A DNA stretch of 64,000 nt, taken from NCBI GenBank assembly GCA_964560525.1, contig CAZLLO010000001.1:6656-70655 (forward strand), written 5' to 3'. The stretch's first letter is position 1. The number at the start of each line of letters is the position of its first letter. The position numbers and the translations under genes are program-made. Source of the stretch: an uncultured Candidatus Saccharibacteria bacterium (lineage in GTDB: Bacteria > Patescibacteriota > Dojkabacteria > SC72). The notes below the pieces were generated by a model, which worked only from the letters and a program-made list of their open reading frames with translations, made no database searches and was not told the origin of the DNA. This document shows positions 11,813 to 48,863 of this stretch, piece by piece.

Positions 11813-12030
11813 TATCTTTTTGTCTTACTTTTAATAGTATTTCCTGTTAAGTCTTCAAAATGCTCAGATTTAACAATTGCTATCCCCTTTTTCTTGTCTG
11901 CCAACATCACAATAGAATCGCCAGGATTAATTTCAAACATATCACGAATATCCTTAGGGATTACTATTTGTCCTCTTTCGCCTACTTTGCAAACTCCAAT
12001 ATATTTATCTTTTGGCATATTTATATTCAA
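11812..12030 (-). CDS. AbrB/MazE (SpoVT-AbrB) family DNA-binding protein.
   Basis: GERGQIVIPKDIR swapped-hairpin motif. 72 aa. Its stop overlaps the start of the ABC ATPase gene. Confidence 0.6.
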   Translation of the reverse strand: MNINMPKDKYIGVCKVGERGQIVIPKDIRDMFEINPGDSIVMLADKKKGIAIVKSEHFEDLTGNTIKSKTKR

Positions 12031-12094
12031 GGTAAAATTTCATATTTATCATACTATTCATATTTGAGTCGTGCAAGACAGATTTAATAATTAT

Positions 12095-12115
12095 TCTCAA
12101 TATCGTTTATTGAGA
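12095..12115. promoter_or_regulatory. Perfect 8-bp inverted repeat TCTCAATA-N5-TATTGAGA upstream of the AbrB-ABC operon.
   Basis: Seen directly in the sequence. Lies between the radical SAM gene stop and the abrB-like gene start. A candidate operator or terminator. Confidence 0.3.
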
Positions 12116-12125
12116 TACTATACAA

Positions 12126-13001
12126 TTAGAAATTCCCCATTCTTAATTGCTCACTCTCTCTATTCTTTATTTTGTAATTGTTCTGTATATTATATTTTCT
12201 TTTATACTTGCTTACCCTAATATAAAAGACCTCCCTGTACTCCCTACTAACAAATCCTCCCTTGTACAACTCCAAATATTTTTTAAAATATTCTGGAAAC
12301 TCCCTCTCAATAAAGCCAAGAAAATGACTCTTAGTAACACCCCTTAGATTTAGTATCTGACACAAAACATAATCTATTGGCACAGATGATATATGACTAA
12401 ATAAATCATCAAGATTTTCATCGGTATCAGTTAAGAGAGGTAAAAAAGGCATCGCTAAAACACCTAAGTTAACATTTGTTTTTCTAAACTCTTTTAATAC
12501 CTCCAATCTCTCAGTAGGCTTAGAAGCTCCAGGCTCTGTTTTAGGATATATATTTGAATCAAAGGTTGTAAGAGATACTGCCAAACTTACAGATGCTACA
12601 TTAGAAAGTTCATTCCACAGCTCAATATCTCTTAAAATTAATTTTGATTTCGTAGAGATTGTCACTGGATTCTTGTATTTGATTAATATTTTAAGAATTT
12701 CTGGCATTATTTCTTCCTCTTTTTCGAGTCTCTGATAACTGTCTGTTACACCCCCTAAATTAATAATTTCCCCTTTCCATCTTTTTGAAGATATCTTCTT
12801 TTCGAGTAATTCAGGTATATTATCTTTAACATATATCTCACCAAAGAAATCTCCATCCTCAAGATATCTGTGTGAATATTGTGCATAGCAGTATTGGCAG
12901 TGATGACTACAGCCTCTAAAGATATTTAAATCCCAATTATATGGAAGATATTTCGAGTTGAGTTTATTTAATGCAGATTTGGAATCTATTCTTTTTACCA
13001 T
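12126..13001 (-). CDS. Radical SAM protein, spore-photoproduct-lyase-like DNA repair family.
   Basis: CSHHCQYC is a Cx3Cx2C cluster. A TISTKS motif resembles the SPL ELRTKS motif. 291 aa. Confidence 0.55.
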   Translation of the reverse strand: MVKRIDSKSALNKLNSKYLPYNWDLNIFRGCSHHCQYCYAQYSHRYLEDGDFFGEIYVKDNIPELLEKKISSKRWKGEIINLGGVTDSYQRLEKEEEIMPEILKILIKYKNPVTISTKSKLILRDIELWNELSNVASVSLAVSLTTFDSNIYPKTEPGASKPTERLEVLKEFRKTNVNLGVLAMPFLPLLTDTDENLDDLFSHISSVPIDYVLCQILNLRGVTKSHFLGFIEREFPEYFKKYLELYKGGFVSREYREVFYIRVSKYKRKYNIQNNYKIKNRESEQLRMGNF

Positions 13002-13238
13002 ATTTAATTATATCATCAGTATATTGTTTGAAATGTGAGGGGAACAGATATTTGGTATAATTAAATATGAAAAACAATAAAGAATATTTCTTCATCGACC
13101 TTAATGTCATTGATATGAAAATAGTTAATTGGGGAATATCTAATACAGCAACTCTTACAGGAGAAACAGGAGACAAGGACATTCATAGGATATTTCTAAC
13201 TAAGGGGCAATACAACAAGTTTCTAGCTTACTTAAAGT

Positions 13239-13263
13239 AATCAGAATAGCTTTTATTCTGATT
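13239..13263. promoter_or_regulatory. Perfect 10-bp palindrome AATCAGAATA-N5-TATTCTGATT about 55 bp upstream of the 13318 gene.
   Basis: Seen directly in the sequence. A candidate dimeric transcription-factor operator. Confidence 0.35.
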
Positions 13264-13317
13264 TTGACATAACTATTCCTAATTGATACAGTAGTAAATA
13301 ATCTCATTCATATTAAG

Positions 13318-15165
13318 ATGAAGAAATTAATTCTCCCTCAAATAAAGCTAACTAAGAAGCAAATCCTTTTCATTTGTATTCCCCTTGCCGTTATAATCCT
13401 CCTAGTTATTGGCTTTTTCATACTAAAAGGCATGGGAAAGCTCAACTTTGGAAATAATGTAGAAAATAACCAAACAAAAGAAGGATATGCCAACGACATG
13501 GTAGAAGATCCTGAAGATATATATCAACCGTTTGAGGAATCAAATACAAAAATTAAAATATATGGAGAAATTGGATGGGATAATGAAGGAGGAACAGTAC
13601 CTACATACGTAAATATGAGTAAACAATGCTCAACACAAATTGCATGGGATGAAGTAAACGCATATATAAATGAACATTGGGGCGAAAAAAAGAAAAATGA
13701 ACTAGAATCAGAATATCTAGCATCTAAAGGGCTTTCATATACAAGCTATGATGAATACAGCACAACTTTTACGAATCCTCCACACACCCGTCTTACTGGA
13801 GAAGCAACCGAGGTTGAAAATCACTGTATCATTAGCACATCTTCAGGTTTTGATATATCAAGGACATGGAACGAAGAAGAACACAACTTTACTCAAAATC
13901 CTATGTTAAGTGCATATGTAGAATTACCTGATGGTTCTTTACTCACAATGAATGACTCTTCTACATTTCAGATAAATGTATATGATAATGAAATAAGAGT
14001 TGTACTAGAAGAAGGTTTAGGATATTTTAGAATAGCTGAACAAAAAGATGGAAAGACTTTTGCAGTTCAAGTCGGAGATAAGGTATACAAGACACAAGGA
14101 GGAACAGAGCTTTATGTTTACTCTGTATCATATATTAACCGATCACAAGCATTCAAAACAGAATTCGCTATCTTTGCAGATACAGAGGGATATGATGGAT
14201 TTCAGACATACTTCAACCAAGAGGCAACAGAACGGAGCCAAGCATATCTAGCAGGAATAAAGACAATAGCTGGAGATGGAGAAATATACCAGAGAGGTAC
14301 TAACAATAAGATCGAGAAATCAGAGAATGAATACAGATTCGCCTACTACTACAAATATACATATACAACAGATAGTATAAAGGGCGGGTACACACGCAAT
14401 GCCAACGAAGTACCAACTCTCTCATCATTTGGTACATATGTTAGCAATGATCTTGATACAGGTCTTAATTTGAATATTAATAACTCAAGCAGAGAATACT
14501 ATGACTTCTTTGTACGAGATCAAAAAGCATTGAATAAGATTGGACAAGGCTTTGAGAATATCGTAAAGAACAACAATGGAAATATATCCAAGATGATGAA
14601 AGAGTATGTAGTATATTACACAAATCTTGGAACTAAACAGTTAGCAGAGAGAGCAGCTACCGAGGAAAAAGATACTCGTCCATGTAGCGGTGTATGGTTT
14701 CTGGAAGATTCTCCTACCTGTGGCTGTAAAACAGGCTGGACATACATCAAAGAAGCCAAAGGTTGCTGCCCTAGTGGCTCAACATATTCAACAAGTCAAA
14801 ATAAATGTATAACTACAACAATAATATCTAGATGTCCATCGGGGACATATAGTGTTGGCAATAATAAATGTTGTAAAACAGGGTCTAAATTATCTAGTGA
14901 TGGTACTAAATGTGTATCCAGTACGAATAAATCAGACAAAACACCAACGTATTATCCAGATAGTGGGACAACAAGTTCTGGAACATCTGGTAGTACAGGT
15001 TCCTCTTCCAGTTCAACAGGTGGTAGTTGCCAAGCACAAGATATGGAAGCCTGTTTCGAGATGGGCATTATGAAAGATCAATGCCCGGGTGGTGCAGCAG
15101 GTCCTGGATTCTATGTAAAAAATGGACAATGTTGCCAAACAGTAAAAATGGAATGCGTTGACTAA
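13318..15165 (+). CDS. Secreted or membrane-anchored protein with a Ser/Gly/Thr-rich linker and a Cys-rich C-terminal repeat region.
   Basis: N-terminal TM segment. Repeated CCPSGSTYS...NKC / RCPSGTYS..NKCC motifs. SGTSGSTGSSSSS linker. Confidence 0.5.
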   Translation: MKKLILPQIKLTKKQILFICIPLAVIILLVIGFFILKGMGKLNFGNNVENNQTKEGYANDMVEDPEDIYQPFEESNTKIKIYGEIGWDNEGGTVPTYVNMSKQCSTQIAWDEVNAYINEHWGEKKKNELESEYLASKGLSYTSYDEYSTTFTNPPHTRLTGEATEVENHCIISTSSGFDISRTWNEEEHNFTQNPMLSAYVELPDGSLLTMNDSSTFQINVYDNEIRVVLEEGLGYFRIAEQKDGKTFAVQVGDKVYKTQGGTELYVYSVSYINRSQAFKTEFAIFADTEGYDGFQTYFNQEATERSQAYLAGIKTIAGDGEIYQRGTNNKIEKSENEYRFAYYYKYTYTTDSIKGGYTRNANEVPTLSSFGTYVSNDLDTGLNLNINNSSREYYDFFVRDQKALNKIGQGFENIVKNNNGNISKMMKEYVVYYTNLGTKQLAERAATEEKDTRPCSGVWFLEDSPTCGCKTGWTYIKEAKGCCPSGSTYSTSQNKCITTTIISRCPSGTYSVGNNKCCKTGSKLSSDGTKCVSSTNKSDKTPTYYPDSGTTSSGTSGSTGSSSSSTGGSCQAQDMEACFEMGIMKDQCPGGAAGPGFYVKNGQCCQTVKMECVD

Positions 15166-15191
15166 TTAGATAATTTATTAAAAAAATATAT

Positions 15192-15704
15192 ATGAACAGT
15201 AATCAAATATTATTTCTCCTAATAAATATATTAGGTGGTGTAGCCGTGATTTTAAGCTATATTATTGGCTTCAAATCTGCAAAAGGACCTGAAACACTTT
15301 GGGGAGGAGTTCCAAAAAAATTACGCAATCTCTATACTTTCTCCATCCTAACCAGTGCTGTAGCTTATTTTGTTTTTTCATCATACATATTTAAAATGCT
15401 CGCTGGAAATGTAGACCTCTCTTTCTTCTACTATATATATGCCACCCTTCTAACCGCTTCAGCTCTCTGGCTTCCACTTGTTAATATGATGGCTAAGAAA
15501 AATAGAAAGTGGACATGGATTAGTATTAGAACAGTATTAGTTTTAACTTCGTTTTCATTCTTTCTTCTCTTGGTAATATTACTATGCACAGTACCAACAG
15601 GCATACACTATTACATTTCTGTAATAGGGCTAGTATTTGCGACTCTTCATACAGGAGTATTAGATGCAATACTATGGCCTCACTACTGGAAAACCAGGAA
15701 ATAA
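15192..15704 (+). CDS. Small polytopic membrane protein.
   Basis: 170 aa, 4-5 hydrophobic segments. Confidence 0.45.
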   Translation: MNSNQILFLLINILGGVAVILSYIIGFKSAKGPETLWGGVPKKLRNLYTFSILTSAVAYFVFSSYIFKMLAGNVDLSFFYYIYATLLTASALWLPLVNMMAKKNRKWTWISIRTVLVLTSFSFFLLLVILLCTVPTGIHYYISVIGLVFATLHTGVLDAILWPHYWKTRK

Positions 15705-15765
15705 CGTAGATGTTAAAAAACGGTTTAGAAGTCAACTTCTCTAAGGTATACTTAAGATACCAAAC

Positions 15766-17664
15766 ATGAATATCAAAAATACAAAACACATAATCCTGTG
15801 TGCCATACTCTTTGTAATAATCCTACTCGGCCCTATTCTCGTGTTCTTTCTAATCACACAAAAAGAACTAACTACAAATACAAAAAGTATAAAACCAATC
15901 GATAAGTTTTGCATTCAAGGAACATTCCTCTTTCCAACCCTTTATGAAGTAAAAGCTTCATTTCCTACAGAAGTAGAAATAAGAGATAAAACAACTATTT
16001 TCAATAAGATAGATATTTTCGCCAAAGAAATATGCTTAAAACCCAATACCACACTCTCAGCCAATACTCCATATATTCTTACCCTCTCATACCTTGGAGT
16101 CTTTCAAAAGGAAATAAAAATACTAACGACGGACTATCCACAGATAAAAGAACCTAACCCAAAAACAACAATAGATCCTAATCAAATAATTACATACGAA
16201 TTAGATTATACCTCCGAATCTCTAAACTACACCCTTGTTCTAGACGATACCAAGACCCTCTGTACTAAAGAAAATAATCTCGTACATTGTAATATTGCTT
16301 CCCTTAATCTAAGACCAGATAGTGCACACAAGTTAAACCTGGTATCCTCGAATAAGACAGAGACTGTAAATACGCTAATTTCGACCAATATTACAGTACT
16401 CTCTCCTGTTAACATAGTTTCTACAAGCATACAACAAAATGAGATCATACAGAGTCTTTCAATCCCAGAAATAAAGATAACTTTAAATAAAGAGATAGAT
16501 AAAAATTTCAACACTATACTTGAGGATAACTTGAAGAATAAGGTCACATGCAAAGCTTCTGTTACAGGATCTAAGATTTTCATACAACCTCAAAGCACAT
16601 TTAAACAAAATACAGCATATACTCTAAAGCTTAATCAACTTATTGGTTTAGATGGAAGCCAATTAGAGAAAGAATATACTTTAGAGTTTTCCATAGGTAA
16701 TGGTCCGAAAATTACAAAAACGAATACAAGTAGTGCATTTCCAACAACAGGAAACATAGTAATCACATTTAATCAAAACCTTAAAAACTCACAAGATATT
16801 AAGAAATTCATAACGTTGAATTCCGGAACCGATTACTCATATACCATTAGCAAGAATAAGATAACTATAAACCCAAGCCATAGCTTAACTCTATGCAAGA
16901 AATATAGTTTGAACATAGCAAAGGGACTCAAAGGAAGTACCAACCTGATATCCACCTCTAATTCTTCATATACTTTTAAAACAACGTGTAAAAGAACTGT
17001 TCCAATTGGAACATCCGTACAAGGAAGAAGCATCTACGCGTATTACTTTGGTACTGGTAGTAAAAAGATTGTATTCTTTGGCTCAATACATGGATCTGAA
17101 GCAAATACTAAAACAACTCTTAATAGATGGGTAACAGAGTTAGAGAATAATAACAGTAGAATTCCATCAGACAAAACCATCATCGTTATACCGACAGTTA
17201 ATCCTGATGGAATAGCAAACAAGAGTAGATTTAATGCTAATGGTGTGGACTTGAATAGAAATTTTGATACTACCAATTGGGTAACAGGCACATACCTTCA
17301 AACTCATTTCTATCCTACTGGTGGAGGATCTAATCCATTCTCTGAGCCAGAGAGTCAGGATATTAGAAACCTCATAAACAGAGAAAATCCATATATTACA
17401 CTTACATACCATTCTGCAGCAGGATATGTGATACCTACAAATACAGGCACAGGTGTAGCATTGGGAAAAATATATTCTCAGTTATCTGGATACAGATATG
17501 TTGCCCCTGGCACGACTGGTTCTTTTACATATGATATTACTGGTACTTTCGAAGAATGGGCTGAAGAGCATGGGCACAATGCCTTGGTAATAGAGCTTTC
17601 CAGTGCATACTATGATCAATTTATACAAAATAGCAAAGCTATGTGGAGAATGGTTGAAAACTAA
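15766..17664 (+). CDS. Membrane-anchored protein with Ig-like repeats and a C-terminal M14 zinc-carboxypeptidase domain.
   Basis: HGSEA (HxxE), NPDG, DLNRNF and a downstream His are the M14 signature. N-terminal TM. Confidence 0.65.
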   Translation: MNIKNTKHIILCAILFVIILLGPILVFFLITQKELTTNTKSIKPIDKFCIQGTFLFPTLYEVKASFPTEVEIRDKTTIFNKIDIFAKEICLKPNTTLSANTPYILTLSYLGVFQKEIKILTTDYPQIKEPNPKTTIDPNQIITYELDYTSESLNYTLVLDDTKTLCTKENNLVHCNIASLNLRPDSAHKLNLVSSNKTETVNTLISTNITVLSPVNIVSTSIQQNEIIQSLSIPEIKITLNKEIDKNFNTILEDNLKNKVTCKASVTGSKIFIQPQSTFKQNTAYTLKLNQLIGLDGSQLEKEYTLEFSIGNGPKITKTNTSSAFPTTGNIVITFNQNLKNSQDIKKFITLNSGTDYSYTISKNKITINPSHSLTLCKKYSLNIAKGLKGSTNLISTSNSSYTFKTTCKRTVPIGTSVQGRSIYAYYFGTGSKKIVFFGSIHGSEANTKTTLNRWVTELENNNSRIPSDKTIIVIPTVNPDGIANKSRFNANGVDLNRNFDTTNWVTGTYLQTHFYPTGGGSNPFSEPESQDIRNLINRENPYITLTYHSAAGYVIPTNTGTGVALGKIYSQLSGYRYVAPGTTGSFTYDITGTFEEWAEEHGHNALVIELSSAYYDQFIQNSKAMWRMVEN

Positions 17665-17703
17665 AAGCCACATAAATATCATATACCTGTTAGAATGTAG
17701 CAT

Positions 17704-18078
17704 ATGACAAATACCAAAAAGCAATTTACTACTATCGATGAATATATTTCCTCCTTTCCCAAAGAAGATCAGCTTCTTCTTCAACAATTTAGAGAAGCGA
17801 TTAAGAGTGTTGCTCCTGAAGCCACAGAGATTATTAAGTATCAGATGCCTACATTCATACTTAATGGTGATTTAGTATATTTCGCAGGATATGCACATCA
17901 TATTGGTTTCTATCCTACACCCTCAGGTATCGTTGCATTCAAGAAGAAACTTGTAAAATATGTTACCTCAAAGGGAGCTATTCAATTTCCTATTAGAAAA
18001 CAGATACCATTTAACTTAGTAAAGGAGATTGTAAAATTTAGAGTACAAGAAAACCAGAAAAGAGAACATACCAAATAG
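17704..18078 (+). CDS. DUF1801 (YdhG-like) domain protein.
   Basis: TIDEYI...YQMPTF...YFAGYAHHIGFYP pattern. Confidence 0.5.
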   Translation: MTNTKKQFTTIDEYISSFPKEDQLLLQQFREAIKSVAPEATEIIKYQMPTFILNGDLVYFAGYAHHIGFYPTPSGIVAFKKKLVKYVTSKGAIQFPIRKQIPFNLVKEIVKFRVQENQKREHTK

Positions 18079-18126
18079 CACAATACATGCTACTATATGT
18101 ATGTATTAATTTAGTTCATCATAAAT

Positions 18127-18609
18127 ATGGCATATCCAAATGAGTGTTGTCCAAAATTTGACCCTACTCCATGGCAAAATAAAGAGCATGTCTGGAAAGA
18201 TAAACTCTTTGTAAAAAAAGATGTAAATCAAATCTTCCACTTGCCACTTAACATGGGCAAAGTTATAACCGAAATGTTTGATAAAGTTCAGAAAGCTGGT
18301 GCAGAAACATCTGGAGAAGAATTTCTAATGCTTGCATATGATCCTTCACCATGGAAATCAGAAATGTATATATCAGTAACAAAGGAAGTCCCTAATATCG
18401 AGAATGTAAAACTCTCTGGCAAATATATTAGTAAAGTCTTTGATGGTCCATACAATGCAGTCCCTAGTTGGATTGCAGAATTTGAATTGTATTTAAAAGA
18501 AAAGAATCTGAAAGCTTTAAGATATTACTTCTACTACACTACATGCCCGAAGTGTGCTAAGAAATACGGACATAACTATGTTGTAGCTTTTGCACAAACA
18601 GAGAAATAG
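18127..18609 (+). CDS. Hypothetical protein.
   Basis: 160-aa ORF with a C-terminal CPKC motif. Confidence 0.4.
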   Translation: MAYPNECCPKFDPTPWQNKEHVWKDKLFVKKDVNQIFHLPLNMGKVITEMFDKVQKAGAETSGEEFLMLAYDPSPWKSEMYISVTKEVPNIENVKLSGKYISKVFDGPYNAVPSWIAEFELYLKEKNLKALRYYFYYTTCPKCAKKYGHNYVVAFAQTEK

Positions 18610-18617
18610 ACAAGTAA

Positions 18618-19181
18618 CTACCTTATATACACACAACTAGGAGTAACTAATTCAGATATATATGAGATTTTAATCTCCTTCTTCTCTTTCCCTCCATTAG
18701 GGATATATACTGCACATGCCTTATCTACCCTGTATCTAAAATAGTCATCTAAGCTTTGACTAGTATTAGGAAACATTCCCATTAAAGTACAGTACTGTGA
18801 GAGATCCAAAGACATATCAATTTTCTTTAGATTTTTAGCAGTAATAGCAAAATGAGATTTCTTCTTATTCCCAACTAACAGTACTTCCTCAGGAAGCTTA
18901 GACCAGACATCCTTGTCAGAAGAATATTCTTCAAACCTATCTACTTTGTCTGGTATAAAGCTAGATTTAGTCTCAACGAAAAGAACATAAATAGGTTGAG
19001 TATTTGAATATGACATGAGGCTTTGAATAGTTTTAGGATGACAGAACACTCCGCTATATCCCCAGAAATATTTTCCAATCTTCTTTTCTTCTTTCTGCTT
19101 AATTTCAATTATCTCATCCAACGAATGGTTACAATACGGACCCACTTTCATAAGGATGATATTTTGAAATTGGCTTTCCAT
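18618..19181 (-). CDS. Hypothetical protein, translationally coupled partner of the 19182-20030 gene.
   Basis: 187 aa. Its start abuts the stop of the upstream gene. Confidence 0.4.
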   Translation of the reverse strand: MESQFQNIILMKVGPYCNHSLDEIIEIKQKEEKKIGKYFWGYSGVFCHPKTIQSLMSYSNTQPIYVLFVETKSSFIPDKVDRFEEYSSDKDVWSKLPEEVLLVGNKKKSHFAITAKNLKKIDMSLDLSQYCTLMGMFPNTSQSLDDYFRYRVDKACAVYIPNGGKEKKEIKISYISELVTPSCVYIR

Positions 19182-20030
19182 TTACTCTGGGAATAAATCA
19201 TCCTTTAATCTCTTACTAAACCTGCCCGCGTTTAAAGCTCTTTCCTTTAGTTCAACTTTAGCAGATTCCGATATCTTCATAAAATGTCTAAACATTTCTA
19301 AAGTATGTTGGTATGTTTCTTCTGTCCCATGGAATTTGGCCAAAACAGCAAATTGCATGATTACAGAAGTAGGAATCCAAAAATTCGTAGGTATTTTCTC
19401 CTCTGAAGTATAGTCACCATAATAGGCTGGTATTGATGTTTTTCCTTCGAGGATTGCTAAGAGTGATCGTCTATTTCCATCTTGGACAATATAGCTATCA
19501 ACACCATCCTTTGGTAACACAAATACAATAATTGGAGATTTATCTTTGTCAAAACTCTCTTCTCTTGACTGTTGAAATTCTTTCCTCCATCTATCTGCTA
19601 TCTCTTGATTCTCAGGTGCGTTAAAGAATTCTCTTACCTCTTCCATATTGGAATTTTTACCTTCAAAGTATGGAGATATGAAGGACAAATCTGTACCAAC
19701 TAAAAGATTTCCATCTAAAGGAAAGTCATCTCTTAATTTCCAAGTAATATTTTCTGCTGTTAGTACTTCCAAGAAATGTTCCTTTAGTTTGAATCCCATG
19801 GCCATTCCATGAAATCCATTCCAAAATTGTCTTAATGGCATAATATTATCTTTTTCTGAATACCATTTCTCCACGCTTGAATCTATTTGACTCCATGCTT
19901 CAGGTTCTTTAACATCTGGAAGATATTTCTTAAACTCTCTTCTGAGGTATGTTGTAGCAATGTCTATCCTTATGCGGTCGTAGATATGTTTTGGATAGTT
20001 ACCGTCTTTCTCGTATGGTATTTTACTCAT
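19182..20030 (-). CDS. Protein with a ParB/sulfiredoxin-like motif.
   Basis: IVQDGNRRSLLAILEG resembles the DGxxR..A ParB/Srx/DUF262-type motif. 282 aa. Confidence 0.4.
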   Translation of the reverse strand: MSKIPYEKDGNYPKHIYDRIRIDIATTYLRREFKKYLPDVKEPEAWSQIDSSVEKWYSEKDNIMPLRQFWNGFHGMAMGFKLKEHFLEVLTAENITWKLRDDFPLDGNLLVGTDLSFISPYFEGKNSNMEEVREFFNAPENQEIADRWRKEFQQSREESFDKDKSPIIVFVLPKDGVDSYIVQDGNRRSLLAILEGKTSIPAYYGDYTSEEKIPTNFWIPTSVIMQFAVLAKFHGTEETYQHTLEMFRHFMKISESAKVELKERALNAGRFSKRLKDDLFPE

Positions 20031-20112
20031 AAATATATTCCACTATATTATTATTTTAATTTTATCACATCTAGTATTTCTCTAATTCTTTTTTCATGAT
20101 AATATACAGACT

Positions 20113-20766
20113 ATGTTAGCCACACTAATAGACTTCATAATACATATAGATGTACACCTTACAGAGCTAGTAGCTCAAACAGGCCCATTGGTATATATCA
20201 TTCTCTTTGGAGTACTCTTTGTAGAAACTGGCGTTGTCGTATTTCCATTTTTACCAGGCGATTCCCTCCTATTTGCAGCAGGTGCGTTGTCTGCCATTGG
20301 AGCTATGAATATATATGTATTGCTCATTTCTTGTATTGTTGCAGCATTCCTTGGGGATACTGTTAATTATTGGATTGGAAGATATATTGGTCCTAAGGCT
20401 TTTAGTGTAGATAGATGGTTCTTGAAAAAGGCATATTTAGAAAAGGCTAAAGCTTTTTTTGACAAGCATGGTGTTAAATCAATTGTATTAGCAAGATTTG
20501 TCCCAATAGTTAGGACTTTTGCTCCATTCATAGCAGGTATAAGTGAGATGAAATATTCTACTTTCATTCTCTACAACCTTATTGGTGGTGCTTCATGGGT
20601 TATTCTTTTTCTCTTGGGTGGTTTCTTTTTTGGTAATATACCCATAATTCAAAAGAACTTTGAAATTGTTGTATTCGCTATTATTGGTATTTCTGTAATA
20701 CCTATGATTTTTGAATTTGTAAAAGAAAGTAAATTTGGGAAGAAGCTTTTCAAAAAGAAAGATTAA
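20113..20766 (+). CDS. DedA/SNARE-associated family membrane protein.
   Basis: FPFLPGDSLLFAAG motif. 217 aa. Confidence 0.7.
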   Translation: MLATLIDFIIHIDVHLTELVAQTGPLVYIILFGVLFVETGVVVFPFLPGDSLLFAAGALSAIGAMNIYVLLISCIVAAFLGDTVNYWIGRYIGPKAFSVDRWFLKKAYLEKAKAFFDKHGVKSIVLARFVPIVRTFAPFIAGISEMKYSTFILYNLIGGASWVILFLLGGFFFGNIPIIQKNFEIVVFAIIGISVIPMIFEFVKESKFGKKLFKKKD

Positions 20767-20838
20767 ATATTTGATTTCCCAAAATCAAAATAATATAATT
20801 AGCTATCACGATGACCGAGTTAAGTGGCCTAAGGTTTC

Positions 20839-20870
20839 GACCGAACGCTGATCTCGGTCCTTTTGTTTCT
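20839..20870 (+). terminator. Rho-independent terminator candidate after dedA.
   Basis: GACCGA-acgctgatc-TCGGTC stem-loop followed by CTTTTGTTTCT. Confidence 0.45.
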
Positions 20871-20913
20871 CTCAAAGATATCTCCATTCATATTATTCTG
20901 GTATTATTACTCT

Positions 20914-21345
20914 ATGAATATAAAGATAAAGAGGTTTGATAAATCACTCCCTATACCTGAATACAAGACTCAAGGTGCTGCTGCGTTTGATCTCTATTCT
21001 AGAGAGGATGTAACTGTTAATCCTGGTGAGGTTGTATTGATTCCGTTGAATATAGCTATGGAGATTCCTAAGGGATATTTTGTATTACTTGTTAACAGGA
21101 GTTCTACATTTAAATTAGGTATTACGTGTGCTAATGGTTTAGGTATTGGGGATAGTGATTATTGTGGAGATAATGATGAGTATAAGTTCCCTGCGTTAAA
21201 CTATACCAAGGATATTGTTACTATTGAGAAGGGTACTAGGTGTTGTCAGATGTTAATACTACCTGTAGAACAGGTTAATATACATGAAGTAGAACATTTA
21301 GAGAATACTGATAGAGGGGGATTCGGAAGTACAGGGAATAAGTAA
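20914..21345 (+). CDS. dut: dUTP diphosphatase.
   Basis: AAAFDLYS motif. About 143 aa from the internal Met (MNIKIKR). The track start at 20863 overlaps the terminator. Confidence 0.75.
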   Translation: MNIKIKRFDKSLPIPEYKTQGAAAFDLYSREDVTVNPGEVVLIPLNIAMEIPKGYFVLLVNRSSTFKLGITCANGLGIGDSDYCGDNDEYKFPALNYTKDIVTIEKGTRCCQMLILPVEQVNIHEVEHLENTDRGGFGSTGNK

Positions 21346-22290
21346 TTAACTTTTTAAATAATCTTCCTCGAAACCCATTATAGGCGGCACAATGCTATCT
21401 CCATTCCCCATATTGGCCCAATTAATTTGTGGTGGAATATATTCTGGTATTCTGTAATTTGTTAACTCATTACAATCCTCCTCGGTCATTTCGAAATGCA
21501 TTGCTTCCCAATTTTCTCGAATATGATTTTCTGATGTAGAAAAAACTTCAGGTTTAAATCCCAAACTCTTCATCCAATTTAATACTATTTGGTTTTGTGT
21601 TTTTCCATATTTTTTACTTAATCTAACCAACGGTTCCCAATCATGAGTAATTGTCATTCCCTGTCTTAGAGGTCTCCATATTATGGTTTGAATATCTAAA
21701 TCATTGCATAAGTCAAAAATCCCTTCATCCTGGCACAATCTTATTTCGAAACTAATATGTGTCTCATGAGCAAACAAATTATCTTTAAATTCTTCTTTAA
21801 ATTTCTTAATTAATTCTTTATTCGCATTTGACAAGCTAATATACCTAGTTCTATTAGCTCGTATAAGTTCCCACAATTTCTCTACAACAACATCATATCC
21901 AAATTTAACAACTAAAGATTGTGTTACAAGTGTTGAATCAAAATAGTTAGTATCAAATAGCTGATACATATCCTCGATATCTTTTTCTAATGCAGAAAAA
22001 TCATCTAAATCTCTTGGGTATAACGAATTAGTGATAAATATATCCTCTCTATTAATATCGGATTCTCTAATAGCTCTTGCTAATAATTCAGCAGATTTGC
22101 CATGCCCATAACCCAAAGAAATTTCTGTAAAGTTGTATCCCATTTTTAAGCTTGTGATCAAAGCATTTACACATACTTCATCTCCCTTTATATCCTTCAA
22201 ATCAATATCTCTATGCCCACGCCCTCCAACGCCATAAGTTCCAATACCAATAGGAGAAAGATCTTTCCCTGAAATAGTAGTTACTTTCAT
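21346..22290 (-). CDS. Aldo/keto reductase family oxidoreductase.
   Basis: LSPIGIGTYG, FTEISLGYGHGKSAELL (DTA..YG-like) and ISLSN motifs. Confidence 0.55.
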   Translation of the reverse strand: MKVTTISGKDLSPIGIGTYGVGGRGHRDIDLKDIKGDEVCVNALITSLKMGYNFTEISLGYGHGKSAELLARAIRESDINREDIFITNSLYPRDLDDFSALEKDIEDMYQLFDTNYFDSTLVTQSLVVKFGYDVVVEKLWELIRANRTRYISLSNANKELIKKFKEEFKDNLFAHETHISFEIRLCQDEGIFDLCNDLDIQTIIWRPLRQGMTITHDWEPLVRLSKKYGKTQNQIVLNWMKSLGFKPEVFSTSENHIRENWEAMHFEMTEEDCNELTNYRIPEYIPPQINWANMGNGDSIVPPIMGFEEDYLKS

Positions 22291-22295
22291 AATTG

Positions 22296-22730
22296 TTAGA
22301 ACATAAATTTAGGTTTCTTAAATGGCCATACACTCATTATCCATTCTTTAACCTTCTCCATTACTTCTTTCTCCATATTAGAATATTTATTTCTAATCCA
22401 CATATCTATTTCTACATCATATTCCATATCATCACATGGATACATATACAAACATCCTAAACATTCATCTCTACTGTTATTCAATATTGTATATGTAAAT
22501 GATGCTCGTTTTTGAAATTCTTTTTGATGATATCCCAAATCAACATTATTCTGATACAAGGTATGGTTTGGATATAGAGGATAACCATTCTCATCTAACA
22601 TATCCATAACTGCGGCATAGTCCATCTCAGAAATATCTATGGTTAATGGCAGGAGGATACAATTTGTAAGGACTAATTCCTGTGGTATTTCAAAGGTATC
22701 TGGTATTATTGGTTTTCTATACATTGCCAT
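22296..22730 (-). CDS. Hypothetical protein.
   Basis: 144-aa ORF. Its ATG lies 2 nt after the stop of the orphan 3'-end fragment encoded in repeat A. Confidence 0.4.
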   Translation of the reverse strand: MAMYRKPIIPDTFEIPQELVLTNCILLPLTIDISEMDYAAVMDMLDENGYPLYPNHTLYQNNVDLGYHQKEFQKRASFTYTILNNSRDECLGCLYMYPCDDMEYDVEIDMWIRNKYSNMEKEVMEKVKEWIMSVWPFKKPKFMF

Positions 22731-22766
22731 GGCTATATATTACAACAATCTAATATCTTTCGTATA

Positions 22767-22864
22767 TCCTCCTCCACACTTTCCTTACACAAATGAAAAA
22801 ATCCAAACCTGGTATCTAATTGGTTAGATATAATCTCATTCATAATTAAATACAAGCACCTATT
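22767..22864. repeat. 98-bp direct repeat copy A. It encodes an orphan duplicated 3' end (MNEIISNQLDTRFGFFHLCKESVEED...) of the gene at 26593-27096.
   Basis: About 85% identical over 98 bp to 26621-26718. Minus-strand translation matches the C-terminus of the 26593-27096 product. Confidence 0.75.
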
Positions 22865-24521
22865 TTACTATTTTTTTGCCAACTTTATTATTCCTCTCTG
22901 TTAACAAAACCAAACATATTGGTATAGTAATAACCATATTGAAATTAAATAATCTATAATCATTCCCAGATAACAAAAGCATAGTTCCAAGATCATACAC
23001 TAACGCAGGAACGACAAGCATCAGAACTCTAAAACCATGCTTGTAAAGTGCAAATAGACAAACGAGCATTAAGGCTAGAATTTGAGCACCAATTGATTTA
23101 AATACAAAATTCAAAACAGGAAGATTTGAAGCTGTATTCATGACTAAAACAAAAGCATCCCCTATCTTTGTATATATTGTATCTACATGTTTGTATCCAA
23201 TACTCTTTTTGGGAGTGATACCAACGTTTACATGTGCATTTGGACTCCCCTTTGTAGACCAAACAATACTTGTAAGACTCCTAACTGCAATCAAAGAATC
23301 TTTAGGGTCTGATTTTATAGTATTAAAAACCATACTACCAAATTTAGACAAAGGTACACTTTCAACAACCTTGTTAGTTGGTGCATGGGACTTTATTGAA
23401 TTGTAATTACCAAGGGAGTAAGTGCTTTGCCAAAGTTCATCAGAAGCTATTTCATTCATAAAAGCTTTGGTCTCAGACGTTAATGCTGAAGGATTTTTCT
23501 TCATCACATCGCTGAGTATAGTCATTGGTAGACCTACAGACTCACCATATGTATTATGCGGATATTCTACCTTTAAGAAAGAATACAGCGGACCCTTGAT
23601 AAGAACAAATACTGAGGCTGTAATAAATAATAATATTATGATTTTCTTAACCTGTTTGAAATATAGTATACATACCAGGATAAGTAATGGAATTGTATAA
23701 AAAAGCGCATTATGTCGGATGATTGTTGTTAATGCTACACATACACCAAACCATATAACATTAGAAGATTTCCTCAACCATTCCCCATGGCTTAGGTATA
23801 TATCAATACTTCCGACAAGAAGAATCAACACGAAAATAGTTAGTGCCGTATCTTTCCAGGCATACATCATAATATTCCTCGTGAATGGATTTAGAATTAT
23901 TAGAAATTCGACTATTACTAATAATACTTTTGAGAAACCCCAAGATCTTAGAGTAGATATCAAATATCCTACCCCGAGACTGAATATTACAATCTGTAAG
24001 AATATTACAAAAGTATAATTATTATATATTCGTGTTGCTAGATATATTAAAAAGGTATGTAATACTGGGTGCCAATCATTAAATGTAAAGCTTTGAACCT
24101 GTAACCATTGGTTCGCATTGTCGGGTGAGATTCCACCAGGATAATATGCCAATAACGTAATTGCTAAGATGATAAAACATATTAAAAAAGATACGAAGAA
24201 GAATCTCATATCTAACTTCTCCTGCAAACTATTTATCTTAATATGTTTGTCCTTAAGCTTAGAGCACAAAAATATTAAGACATTAAAAGCAAGTATCATG
24301 TACAAAAAGGAAAGCCCCCCCATTACCAAGACTTCTACAATTGAGAAAGAACCTTCAAAATATACTGTAAACCTTGTAAACACAATATATCCCGACAAAA
24401 GGATTCCTAGAACAATAAAAACTATCTTCCTCCACTTAGAAAGTCCTTCTACGGAAAGCTTTAAGAAGTTTTTGTATCTCAACCAAAGATTTTTAATATT
24501 AAGAAGATTTTCTTTCTTCAT
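22860..24521 (-). CDS. Polytopic membrane protein, possibly a GT-C-type glycosyltransferase.
   Basis: 553 aa, more than 10 TM segments. Sits in a cassette with a GtrA-like gene and a Glf-like flavoenzyme. No motif verified. Confidence 0.35.
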
Positions 24522-26073
24522 GGTATTCTTCCTCAGTATTAACGTTCCAAATAACAGATTTATCCTTTAAATTATTTTTTATTACTTTAACTGTTTCAAT
24601 TGCCGTTAGCATAGAATGATCGGTATTATTATACCTATGCTGCCCATTTCTTCCAATACAATACAGGTTATCGATAGTATTTAAGTAATCCTTAACCTTA
24701 TCAAATTCTTCATACGTACCAAAGTATGCAGGATATACTTTCTTCATTCTGATATATGTTGAATCAAGCACATCCTGTTCTTCTATAACATCAATTTTGA
24801 CTAATTCGCGAATAGCAAACCTAATAAATTCTTTTTCTGGTGTGTTCCACATTTCATCTCCTTCATCACAAAAATATTCTAAACCAACCCAGACAGTATT
24901 TTCATTATCTTGGACCATATATGGAGACCAATTATTAAAAATCTGTAATCTCCCAATTTTCACATCTCTTTCTTGTATATATATCCACGTATCTGGGACA
25001 ATGTTCCCTACTGTTTTAATATTTGTTTCATTCTTTATTTTTAGCTTTTTCAAAAGTAGTCCGACAGTAATAAAGCTTCTATATGGTAAATTAGTAGCTA
25101 TCTTTTTTACATCCTTAGGGATATCGTCACCCATCGCATCAACCAAATCTTTAATTGGCATGCTTGAAAAGAAGAAATCTCCATTTGTACTAGTGATATT
25201 TCCTTTAACATTTCTTGATTCTACACCTGAAATTTTATTACCTACACAGTTTATTTTCGTAACACTGGAATCAAGGTGTATTTCCCCTCCCATTTTCCTT
25301 ATCTCCTCAGCCATAGTTTCCCACAACTGTCCTGGACCTTTCTTAGGATAGAAGAATTGCTCAATAAGGGATGTTTCCTTACTCTGATAATCTTTTTTAA
25401 ATATTTTTAACAATACTTCTTTTACCGCTTGCATTAACGATAGTCCTTTTATACGTTGCGCCCCCCAACTTGGAGAAATATTTCTAGGATGTACTCCCCA
25501 AAGCTTCTCTGTATAATCTTCAAAGAACATAGCATATAATGGTTTTCCAAAGCGATTAATAAAAAAATCCTCCAATGAATTTTCTTTTCTTTTATTAATA
25601 ACAGAAAGTATGTATCCAAAACCTGCTTTCATTGTTCTAATCAAACCCATATTTTTAAATGTTTGTAACTTCATAGATATTGGATAATCAAAGAACTTTC
25701 TTAAAAAGAATATTCTAGATATACGATTTCTTATGAGCATTACCCTATCTACTTTCTCTGGATCTGGTCCATCTTTCACCAAAGGTTTCTTAATACCAAG
25801 TTTTTTATCGTCTTTTGAGGATTTCCCCTGTAATGGCATTATTTCATTCCATAGATCTGTAACTTCCTTACTCTTGGAAAAGAATCTGTGGCCACCAATA
25901 TCAATCCTATTCCCTTTGTATATCGCCGTACGAGAGATACCACCGATATAGTTGGTTTCTTCTAATATGATTGGTTTGATATCTGTTTCTTTTAGCAATT
26001 GATATGCTGCTGTTAATCCCGCAGGTCCTGCACCTATGATTATTGCTTTCCTTTGATGTTTTTTCTCTTTCAT
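24499..26073 (-). CDS. FAD-dependent oxidoreductase (amine-oxidase / UDP-galactopyranose-mutase-like Rossmann fold).
   Basis: [16 protein letters not shown] dinucleotide-binding motif. IGGISRT...IDIGGHRF. Confidence 0.5.
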
Positions 26074-26091
26074 TATTAAGATATAAAAATA

Positions 26092-26529
26092 TTATTTGAA
26101 TATGAAGATTTTGCGACCAATATAATTCCAAAGTAATACTACTCCTGCAATAAAGATTTTAACGACAATATAGAATTCAGTACCAAAAATTTTAATACCA
26201 AAATACATACCTAATTCAGTCATCAATAATCCGATAACACCGATAATAGAAAATATTACAAATGATTTGAATTGCTTCCCATTTACTTTGTCATTTCCTT
26301 TTTTAAATACAAAGATTAGAGATAAGATGTAGTTGAAAGTTAACCCTGCTACAAAGCCTAATGCTGTAGATATTAGTATCCCAGTTTTTCCAAGGTCATG
26401 AAAGATAAATTCCCTTGCCAAAACCAATACCCCCGTATCAATAAGGAACGCAGAACCACCTACTAATAAATATCTGGCAAATTCTTTTGCTAGTTCTATA
26501 TATTTTGTCTTTTTAATTTCATCTATCAT
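26092..26529 (-). CDS. GtrA-like membrane protein (polysaccharide-synthesis flippase family).
   Basis: 145 aa, 4 TM segments. LLVGGSAFLIDTGVL GtrA signature. Confidence 0.55.
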   Translation of the reverse strand: MIDEIKKTKYIELAKEFARYLLVGGSAFLIDTGVLVLAREFIFHDLGKTGILISTALGFVAGLTFNYILSLIFVFKKGNDKVNGKQFKSFVIFSIIGVIGLLMTELGMYFGIKIFGTEFYIVVKIFIAGVVLLWNYIGRKIFIFK

Positions 26530-26592
26530 TAGAATTTTTCAATTTTCCATGATACCTCCCTGTACCAACGAAATCAAATAAGGCAAGAAACG

Positions 26593-27096
26593 TCATAGAC
26601 TAAATATTAAACAACCAAGATCCTCCTCCACTCTTTCCTTACACAAATGAAAGAAACCAAACCTAGTATCTAATTGATTATTAATAATCTCATTCATAAT
26701 TAAATATGCAGACCTATTACAAGGCCCATTAGTTGTACTTGTATATCTGTAAAATGTATTAGGTAATACAATATCTAGATTAGAAGCATATTCCTCTGTA
26801 CCATCATTAATAATAATTCTTCTTCCATACCTATTAACATACTTAGGATCATATCTAGATCTTTTGGCATTCCTATTATTATCTGCTATCCCTATAACAT
26901 ACCTATACTTTGGTATCTGTTCTAACAGTTTCTTTGTTGAAAATGTACCTGGTACGAATAGTTTATCTATACCGTACTTCTCAGCATCCAATTCATACAA
27001 TACTTTTGAGCTTCTACGTGTGTAGTTGAAAAATGTATAGAGGAGAATGCTATTCATTCCCCACCTCCACCCATATGGGACAATGATCAGATCCAT
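26593..27096 (-). CDS. Hypothetical protein whose 3' end is duplicated in repeat A.
   Basis: 167 aa. The C-terminal ~40 codons lie within repeat B. Confidence 0.4.
   Translation of the reverse strand: MDLIIVPYGWRWGMNSILLYTFFNYTRRSSKVLYELDAEKYGIDKLFVPGTFSTKKLLEQIPKYRYVIGIADNNRNAKRSRYDPKYVNRYGRRIIINDGTEEYASNLDIVLPNTFYRYTSTTNGPCNRSAYLIMNEIINNQLDTRFGFFHLCKERVEEDLGCLIFSL
26621..26718. repeat. 98-bp direct repeat copy B.
   Basis: Pairs with 22767-22864. Confidence 0.75.
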
Positions 27097-27814
27097 ATAC
27101 CTCCTTTAATATTCCAGCCCCCTTTATATCCTTTTCTATGTTCTTAGATACTAGGAAGTAATCAAACCTCCATCCATTGTTCTTCTCTCTCTTAGGATCC
27201 CTCATATGCCACCAAGAATAATACCCACTACCCTTCTGAAACATTCTAAAAGAATCTACCATACCAATATCCAACATATCATCAAACCATCTTCTTTCCT
27301 CTGGTAAAAATCCAGACATCTTACAATCCTTAAGATACATATCATCATGAGTATGGCCTACATTTAAATCACCTCCTACTATTACCTTCTCGCCATTCTC
27401 AATCATGGGTTTAACTAATTTAAGAATCTCATCATAGTATTGGAGTTTAAATTTCAACCTTGATTCAGATGAATTACCATTGGGAGTATAGAAATTGAAT
27501 ATGGTTATATCCCTTACTTTGATTTTAATAACCCGACCCTCGGTTTCTAGTATTTCATTTCCTACCTTGTTGGTTATTTCTTTTACATCTAATGTATTTT
27601 TGTAATACATTGCAGTTCCTGCATACCCTGGTCTACCCGAATCATTGAATAGTGTTGAATACCCATCTACAAATTTGAGAAAAAATGATAACTGGTCTTC
27701 AGTTGCCCTTAGTTCTTGTATCCCCACAATATCTGGTTGATAGTCTTTAAGAAATTGGAGATATTTATCTTCATATGACCTTAGGCTATTTACATTCCAA
27801 GAATATATTTTCAT
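27050..27814 (-). CDS. xth: Exodeoxyribonuclease III (AP endonuclease).
   Basis: MKIYSWNVNSLR..., GDLNVGH, SDHCP motifs. Confidence 0.8.
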   Translation of the reverse strand: MKIYSWNVNSLRSYEDKYLQFLKDYQPDIVGIQELRATEDQLSFFLKFVDGYSTLFNDSGRPGYAGTAMYYKNTLDVKEITNKVGNEILETEGRVIKIKVRDITIFNFYTPNGNSSESRLKFKLQYYDEILKLVKPMIENGEKVIVGGDLNVGHTHDDMYLKDCKMSGFLPEERRWFDDMLDIGMVDSFRMFQKGSGYYSWWHMRDPKREKNNGWRFDYFLVSKNIEKDIKGAGILKEVYGSDHCPIWVEVGNE

Positions 27815-48689: not shown

Positions 48690-48753
48690 TGATATAATAT
48701 ATACCAGGAATAGGATCTGGGCAAGAATCGTTGAATATGAAGAATATATAATC

Positions 48754-48826
48754 TGAGCACGCGGGGACTCGAACCCCGAACCAAGCGATTAAGAGTCGCT
48801 TGCTCTACCAATTGAGCTACGTGCCC
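48754..48826 (-). tRNA. tRNA-Lys (anticodon CTT).
   Basis: Hand-folded cloverleaf of GGGCACGTAGCTCAATTGGTAGAGCAAGCGACTCTTAATCGCTTGGTTCGGGGTTCGAGTCCCCGCGTGCTCA. 7-bp acceptor stem, GTTCGAGT T-loop, anticodon loop CT-CTT-AA. Confidence 0.85.
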
Positions 48827-48863
48827 ACAAACAATGAGTATAATATCACTTTTAATACCATTT

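Follow-up and report, generated by a model that had tools for sequence, protein, structure and literature searches.

Do two genes that abut head to tail form a functional module, and does that module act in anti-phage defence? This question is raised by a locus of an uncultured Candidatus Saccharibacteria bacterium (GTDB lineage Patescibacteriota; Dojkabacteria; SC72; assembly GCA_964560525.1), which lies in a stretch of 64,000 nucleotides of contig CAZLLO010000001.1 (positions 6,656 to 70,655), here called the window. A first-pass annotation of the window had described the two genes, which we call A and B, as a two-gene module and had suggested for them a role in DNA-modification-dependent defence. 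The features concerned are listed below with their positions in the window.

19182 to 20030, minus strand: gene A, an open reading frame (ORF) of 282 amino acids (aa)
18618 to 19181, minus strand: gene B, an ORF of 187 aa
19179 to 19184, minus strand: TAAATG junction of the A stop and the B start, read from the sequence
19401 to 19757, minus strand: predicted ParB/sulfiredoxin (Srx)-fold core of A, approximate (residues ~92-210)
19467 to 19481, minus strand: DGNRR motif of A, D-G-N-[R/G]-R in the family, from column counts in 51 members and predicted secondary structure
20031 to 20112, no strand: AT-rich divergent intergenic region of 82 bp between A and a DedA-like gene

Co-occurrence of A and B

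The arrangement of the two genes was described correctly in the first-pass annotation. The ATG of B (19179-19181) is directly abutted by the TAA stop codon of A (19182-19184), and both flanking genes, a Bact_hydrolase-family gene (18127-18609) and a DedA/VTT gene (20113-20766), lie on the opposite, plus strand. A and B therefore form an isolated two-gene strand block without any intergenic space between them, and they are probably co-transcribed. The 82-bp region upstream of A would be the only non-coding space able to drive their transcription.

To determine co-occurrence, hidden Markov models of both families were run over the six-frame ORFs of all loci. None of the 22 independent loci of A homologues, 19 of which have at least 700 bp downstream, contained B, and in none of the 78 other B loci, of which 55 have at least 900 bp upstream, was A present. 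When the threshold was relaxed to E<=10, there was still no A in the B loci and no B in the A loci. The two genes were found together only in a single organism, namely in the window and in two further loci, L008 (100% identity) and L034 (99% identity). In view of these counts, the adjacency is lineage-specific and the pair is not a conserved module. The abutting stop and start codons are not special either, because such spacing is common in the window, which has a coding fraction of 91%: the gap is <=0 in 12 of the 38 same-strand neighbour pairs and <=10 bp in 16 of them. On balance, we favour the reading that A and B, each conserved independently of the other, happen to be packed head to tail in one compact genome of the Candidate Phyla Radiation (CPR), and that they are neither a module nor a defence system.

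Protein A, a predicted ParB/Srx-fold protein

The DGNRR motif of A lies within residues 181-196 (IVQDGNRRSLLAILEG). Only 10 relatives of A were picked up by a word-indexed search; with an exhaustive profile search, the family grew to 230 clusters (50% identity, E<=1e-3), of which 176 had E<=1e-10, and the members are nearly all full length (255-290 aa). Conservation was counted in 51 members with 21-44% identity to A. Four residues are invariant (H15, G185, R188 and W218), and R21, E32, K35, F69, W70, T91, N94, W97, P166, D184, N186 and S254 are conserved in at least 90% of the members. In the motif columns, D was found in 46 members, G in 51, N in 50, R or G in 30 and 15, respectively, and the final R in 51. 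Because G185 and R188 are invariant in 51 relatives at such low identity, the motif of A is not a chance occurrence.

The AlphaFold2 model of A is good (predicted local distance difference test score, pLDDT, 82.9; predicted TM-score, pTM, 0.80) and comprises an N-terminal helical region (residues ~14-91), the ParB/Srx-fold core (~92-210) and a C-terminal four-helix region (221-279). Within the core, a strand (95-104), helices (129-158), two strands (167-174 and 177-184), a helix (186-194) and a further strand (199-207) are predicted, and the DGNRR motif is placed at the junction between strand 177-184 and helix 186-194. The first 34 matches of a Foldseek search with this model were all ParB/Srx proteins, led by ParB-CDP, PadC, pNOB8 ParB, KorB and Noc, and ParB/Srx structures were retrieved by two independent fold searches. 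The sequence around the motif is of the type PIIV...(V/I)xDGNRRxxA(I)LxG...IPA.V, and it resembles the ParB segment around Box II. In the ParB-CTPase fold, this box is described as a P motif, GxxR (PMC12704722). Together, the conserved motif, the model and the two fold searches support a ParB/Srx (ParB-CTPase) fold with a GxxR P motif for A, and the ParB/Srx-like character given to the 282-aa protein in the first-pass annotation could thus be upheld.

At the level of sequence models, no relevant Pfam match was found in the 51 members, and ParBc (PF02195) did not match at E<=0.1. Searches with A against Pfam, NCBIfam, PADLOC and PDB sequences, as well as searches with family profiles, gave nothing significant; the sole sequence-level hint was the NCBIfam model SerK (E 0.062, 12.4 bits against a cut-off of 380) over residues 164-221. 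Compared with ParB, PadC, KorB, Noc and sulfiredoxin, A has a similar predicted core fold with a GxxR P motif at a strand-helix junction, but it differs from these members of the superfamily in lacking a PF02195 match and in having extra helical regions at the N-terminus (1-91) and the C-terminus, and neither a Box I nor a Box III motif was identified in it. A was ruled out as a sulfiredoxin: the catalytic Cys of the sulfiredoxin GCHR motif is replaced by Asn in 50 of the 51 members of the A family. It is an uncharacterised and unannotated family of Patescibacteria which appears to be confined to the CPR/Patescibacteria. With at least 230 clusters at 50% identity and a core-genome synteny, it is invisible to Pfam-based surveys.

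The genomic context of A was analysed in the 22 independent loci, which were obtained from look-ups and from a scan of species-representative genomes with a 10-sequence alignment. The genomes that carry them are labelled as Amesbacteria, Shapirobacteria, Microgenomates, Komeilibacteria, Saccharibacteria and 'Patescibacteria group' metagenome-assembled genomes (MAGs). Recurrent neighbours were YchF (7 loci), RNase Y (7), MiaA (6), HU (6), RecA (5) and RecX (4), of which YchF, MiaA and HU were named by Pfam labels and RNase Y, RecA and RecX by eye from sequence. The cysteinyl-tRNA synthetase CysRS, S6-SSB-S18, ThyX, MurB and an HD protein were among the neighbours of A in others. No tightly coupled recurrent partner of A was observed in the 22 loci. 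The context of A is core-genome (housekeeping) synteny and not a defence island.

Several observations were made at individual A loci. In two of them the A homologue follows CysRS, with a Cys-rich protein of 176-214 aa encoded in between (L001:7459-7989 and L003:7338-7982); the two proteins share 58% identity, and the longer of them carries a hydrophobic segment at its N-terminus. These 176/214-aa genes were considered as B homologues and rejected, as they encode unrelated Cys-rich proteins. At another locus (L006:6229-7881), the A homologue has as its divergent neighbour a ThyX (Thy1) gene of 550 aa, roughly double the length that is usual for ThyX. Members of the A family were also present in third-party annotation (TPA) MAGs labelled 'uncultured Gammaproteobacteria bacterium' (L017, L018, L022, L026 and L029). 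L017 and L029 show the synteny of the Shapirobacteria MAGs, with HU and RNase Y in both, YchF, MiaA and RecA in L017 and RecX in L029. The gammaproteobacterial labels of these A-carrying MAGs are probably wrong.

From its fold and context, A is most likely a housekeeping enzyme or switch that depends on nucleoside triphosphates (NTPs) and represents a new CPR-wide ParB/Srx-fold family. The D-G-N-x-R motif, with which helix 186-194 begins, would bind the NTP phosphates, as the fold suggests, and the nearly invariant polar residues H15, R21, E32, K35, N94 and S254 may complete a substrate pocket. The protein would be soluble and nearer in style to SerK, SbnI and Srx, which use ATP, than to the DNA-clamping ParB; with its pTM of 0.80, the model indicates one compact globule, which is enzyme-like rather than clamp-like. 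The functions of the ParB/Srx fold beyond DNA segregation are an active research question, for which A provides a conserved and probably housekeeping example.

Protein B and the contexts of its homologues

More than 142 relatives of B were found at E<=1e-3. They include Dojkabacteria/WS6 and Parcubacteria, with a Sediminibacterium and a member of the Aggregatilineales as outliers. Among 49 sequences, 17 columns are invariant (M11, K12, G14, P15, I24, K28, E31, G41, G44, F46, P49, T71, S73, S87, L102, G104 and K154), and the conserved segments include MK.GP, WGYSGVF..P, ETKS and (R)VDK. The median isoelectric point (pI) of the family is 8.95. The structure model of B is very confident (pLDDT 92.8, pTM 0.89). 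With this conservation and this model, the description of the 187-aa protein as lacking any recognisable motif no longer applies.

The fold matches of B were weak but coherent and consisted of PUA-like modified-base readers (YTH, EVE, ASCH and McrB-N); among the best were the reader domains of the modification-dependent restriction proteins McrB-N, PD-T4-3 and VcaM4I, again as weak matches. B is thus a probable PUA-like alpha/beta barrel of the EVE/YTH/ASCH type, as judged from the model. No Pfam matches to EVE, YTH, ASCH or DUF3850 were found in the 49 members. The only Pfam signal was a weak one to DUF3855 in 7 of the 49, and no DUF3855 match was found when ten distant members were rescanned. 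Literature searches for DUF3855/PF12967 or 'PRTase-CE' found none. Searches with B against Pfam, NCBIfam, PADLOC and PDB sequences, and with the family profile, gave nothing significant. The closest known proteins are the YTH, EVE/THYN1, ASCH and McrB-N readers and the PUA sensor of PUA-Cal-HAD (PMC12871103).

The context of B was studied in 80 metagenome loci and in look-up loci. In the CPR clade that holds the B of the window (45-72% identity), the gene is mostly solitary with variable neighbours; a relative with 67% identity, for instance, is monocistronic and lies near LexA and a NUDIX gene. Conserved operons were seen with more distant B clades, at the following loci.

Type I: L015:3741-8406 (Sediminibacterium roseum), L068, L079, L107, L109, L110, L086, L047 and L051
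Type II: L072:3217-5100, L070-L078 and L108
Type III: L087-L099, for example L093:4700-9800

The Type I operon (9 loci, variable gene order) encodes PRTase-CE (PF24390), a protein of 337-370 aa, a PRAI-like TIM barrel (PF00697), a HAD phosphatase and B. At the S. roseum locus, the PRTase was identified by PADLOC as PRTase_III-A (1e-14) and the protein of the 337-370 aa type as CARF6 (3e-7, weak). AbiLii/RloB (AAA_21/RloB) lies upstream of this operon, and a methyltransferase with NurA also adjoins it. The 'CE' in PRTase-CE stands for conflict effector (PMC12871103), and the Type I operon looks like an undescribed nucleotide-centred conflict system.

The Type II operon (about 10 loci) consists of genes for PNPOx, a protein with the helical domain of 5-hydroxymethyldeoxyuridine (5-hmdU)-DNA kinase (PF18723), B, an MGMT-type protein and Bro-N. 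B overlaps or abuts the stand-alone PF18723 gene upstream and the gene of the MGMT-type DNA-binding domain downstream. In the MGMT-type protein, P[F/Y]HR replaces PCHR, so that the active-site Cys is changed to Phe or Tyr, which we take to make it an alkyltransferase-like (ATL-like) protein. RhuM/Fic genes occur near Type II loci, and two of these loci (L070 and L076) have upstream a gene with a weak similarity to HhH-GPD that falls short of the Pfam cut-off.

The Type III operon (about 10 loci) combines B with two ABC transporters, BpsA_C and two ATP-grasp proteins, the second of which is an ATP-grasp/LAL ligase. The first ATP-grasp gene overlaps B by 8 nt, the BpsA_C-like aminopropyl-transferase gene lies on the other side of B and is followed by the ligase gene, and an Rgg-like regulator and the two ABC transporters precede. 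This type has the look of a cluster for the biosynthesis of a small molecule or a peptide. Type IV consists of BipA, UvrD/PDDEXK and B. A 161-aa gene that overlaps B in Parcubacteria was considered, by eye, as a minimal nucleotidyltransferase; this candidate was dropped, as it was supported by neither Pfam, NCBIfam nor PDB.

Types I, II and IV centre on nucleotides or nucleobases, and a PUA-like binder would fit this theme; for Type III, with its ABC transporters, ATP-grasp ligases and BpsA_C, such a theme is not obvious. From fold and context, the most likely identity of B is that of a nucleotide or modified-base binder from a new PUA-like family. A nucleotide or a modified or damaged nucleobase would be bound through the aromatic residues W40, Y42 and F46, and the polar residues K12, K28, E31, T71, S73 and K154 may take part in ligand binding. 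B is the second unannotated family at this locus, and the contexts with CARF-like, PRTase-CE, PRAI and HAD proteins and with ATL-like and 5-hmdU-kinase helical-domain proteins suggest such a nucleotide or modified-base binding role.

Alternative readings and surroundings of the locus

Could A be a divergent ParB of the canonical type, that is, a cytidine triphosphate-dependent DNA clamp for partition or regulation? The ParB-CDP, PadC, pNOB8 ParB, KorB and Noc matches and the frequent HU neighbour would fit this, but we consider it highly improbable. No helix-turn-helix or C-terminal dimerisation domain was detected by Pfam in A or its 51 members, the protein is acidic (family median pI 6.3), its global TM-scores to ParB were just ~0.2-0.27, and no ParA-like protein was among the recurrent neighbours in the 22 loci. 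The absence of these domains and of such a neighbour, together with the pI, led us to reject A as a canonical ParB. A small-molecule kinase of the SerK/SbnI type, for example a free serine kinase, is similar in size to A and likewise combines a ParB/Srx fold with a helical domain; the SerK hint spans the motif region, and the position of A after CysRS in two loci would also be in line with such a function. This identity is nevertheless quite unlikely for A. The score is far below the cut-off and the similarity to SerK of archaea and SbnI of Staphylococcus is insignificant, the domain order differs in that A has a 90-residue N-terminal helical region, and SerK and SbnI were placed below ParB and Srx by Foldseek. 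Moreover, the context of A is without biosynthetic genes, and CPR bacteria, to our knowledge, generally lack amino-acid biosynthesis.

For the two genes together, the suggested defence role would imply an anti-phage module in which a ParB/Srx NTPase of the DUF262/DndB kind works with a partner that reads modified bases. A shares its superfamily and a DG..R-type motif with DUF262 proteins (GmrSD, BrxU, SspE) and DndB, the best fold matches of B include restriction reader domains, and distant B relatives occur in operons with PRTase_III-A and CARF6 matches, next to AbiLii/RloB. On the other hand, PADLOC assigned neither A nor B to any family, no nuclease or other effector domain is present, and unlike the DUF262/DndB systems, A has neither a fused or adjacent nuclease nor dnd, ssp or BREX neighbours. 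The neighbourhood analysis proposed in the first-pass annotation as a check for defence islands found the A homologues in housekeeping synteny at 22 loci, which had been named beforehand as the outcome that speaks against defence. The window neighbours of the pair are also non-defence genes, the composition of A and B is native (GC 0.349 and 0.337; gene mean 0.339 +/- 0.02), neither family was found in viral contigs, the pairing is restricted to the lineage of the window, and the CPR clade of B is highly conserved (50-72% identity) and solitary, unlike typical defence genes. A defence module is therefore not supported and in our view very improbable, and this negative outcome saves the effort of phage-challenge assays. 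What is left of the modification-linked theme of the first-pass annotation is the weak resemblance of B to modified-base readers and the conflict-type operons of some of its distant relatives. A real pair outside defence, namely a split ParB-CTPase/PUA-like fusion that couples an NTP-driven switch or enzyme to the recognition of modified RNA or DNA bases, also seems unlikely, if less remote. Its more specific form, in which B would read a modified or damaged RNA or DNA base and pass it to, or regulate, the NTP-dependent enzyme A, we hold to be slightly less probable again; if true, CPR bacteria would have in these two proteins a new pair for the surveillance or modification of nucleic acids. 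Recurrent fusions of the ParB-CTPase fold with PUA-like domains have been described, the partner being DUF3850 in prophages and ASCH in archaea (PMC12704722), and the window pair would represent a like combination of folds. At other loci, tight coupling of B through overlapping ORFs is seen with ATP-grasp, 5-hmdU-kinase helical-domain and ATL-like partners, and in the window the ends of A and B abut in an isolated strand block. Unlike those fusions, A and B are separate genes with no parA nearby and not in a prophage, they match none of the Pfam models concerned (PF02195, DUF3850, ASCH), and their adjacency is limited to one lineage; abutting genes are common in the window, and the PUA-like fold of B is weakly supported.

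Independent conservation of A and B thus stays the reading that we favour. Some points weigh against it. No sequence model of the superfamily in Pfam matches A or its 51 members, a housekeeping neighbourhood in a small CPR genome is in part a matter of inherited synteny and not of function, and the known ParB-CTPase/PUA-like fusions keep a functional link between A and B alive for the lineage of the window.

A scan for promoters and terminators around A and B gave matches at chance frequency only; promoter-like matches in the region upstream of A were about as frequent as in shuffled sequence (12 versus 8.7 +/- 2.7). No Shine-Dalgarno-like motif was found within ~20 nt of the start of B, the sole one being AGGA at -23. 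This check is uninformative for B, because most genes here are without such motifs: in 13 of 16 neighbouring genes (window 12000-27100), they are fully absent from the 25 nt before the start. The host genome seems to use mostly Shine-Dalgarno-independent initiation.

The neighbours of A and B in the window encode DedA, a dUTPase, an aldo-keto reductase, Bact_hydrolase, DUF1801 and an M14 peptidase. The dUTPase gene is on the opposite strand to A and ~830 bp away from it, and the DedA gene separates the two. The dUTPase ORF (20863-21345) is listed with a TTG start and ~17 extra N-terminal residues; in truth it probably begins at the internal ATG (MNIKIK...). Several sizeable ORFs of the window are without Pfam match (13318-15165, 15192-15704, 22296-22730 and 22860-24521); among such ORFs are a 615-aa Cys-rich, probably secreted protein and a 553-aa multi-pass membrane protein. 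The only RNA gene found by Rfam and ARAGORN in the 64-kb window is a tRNA-Lys(CTT) at 48753-48827 on the minus strand.
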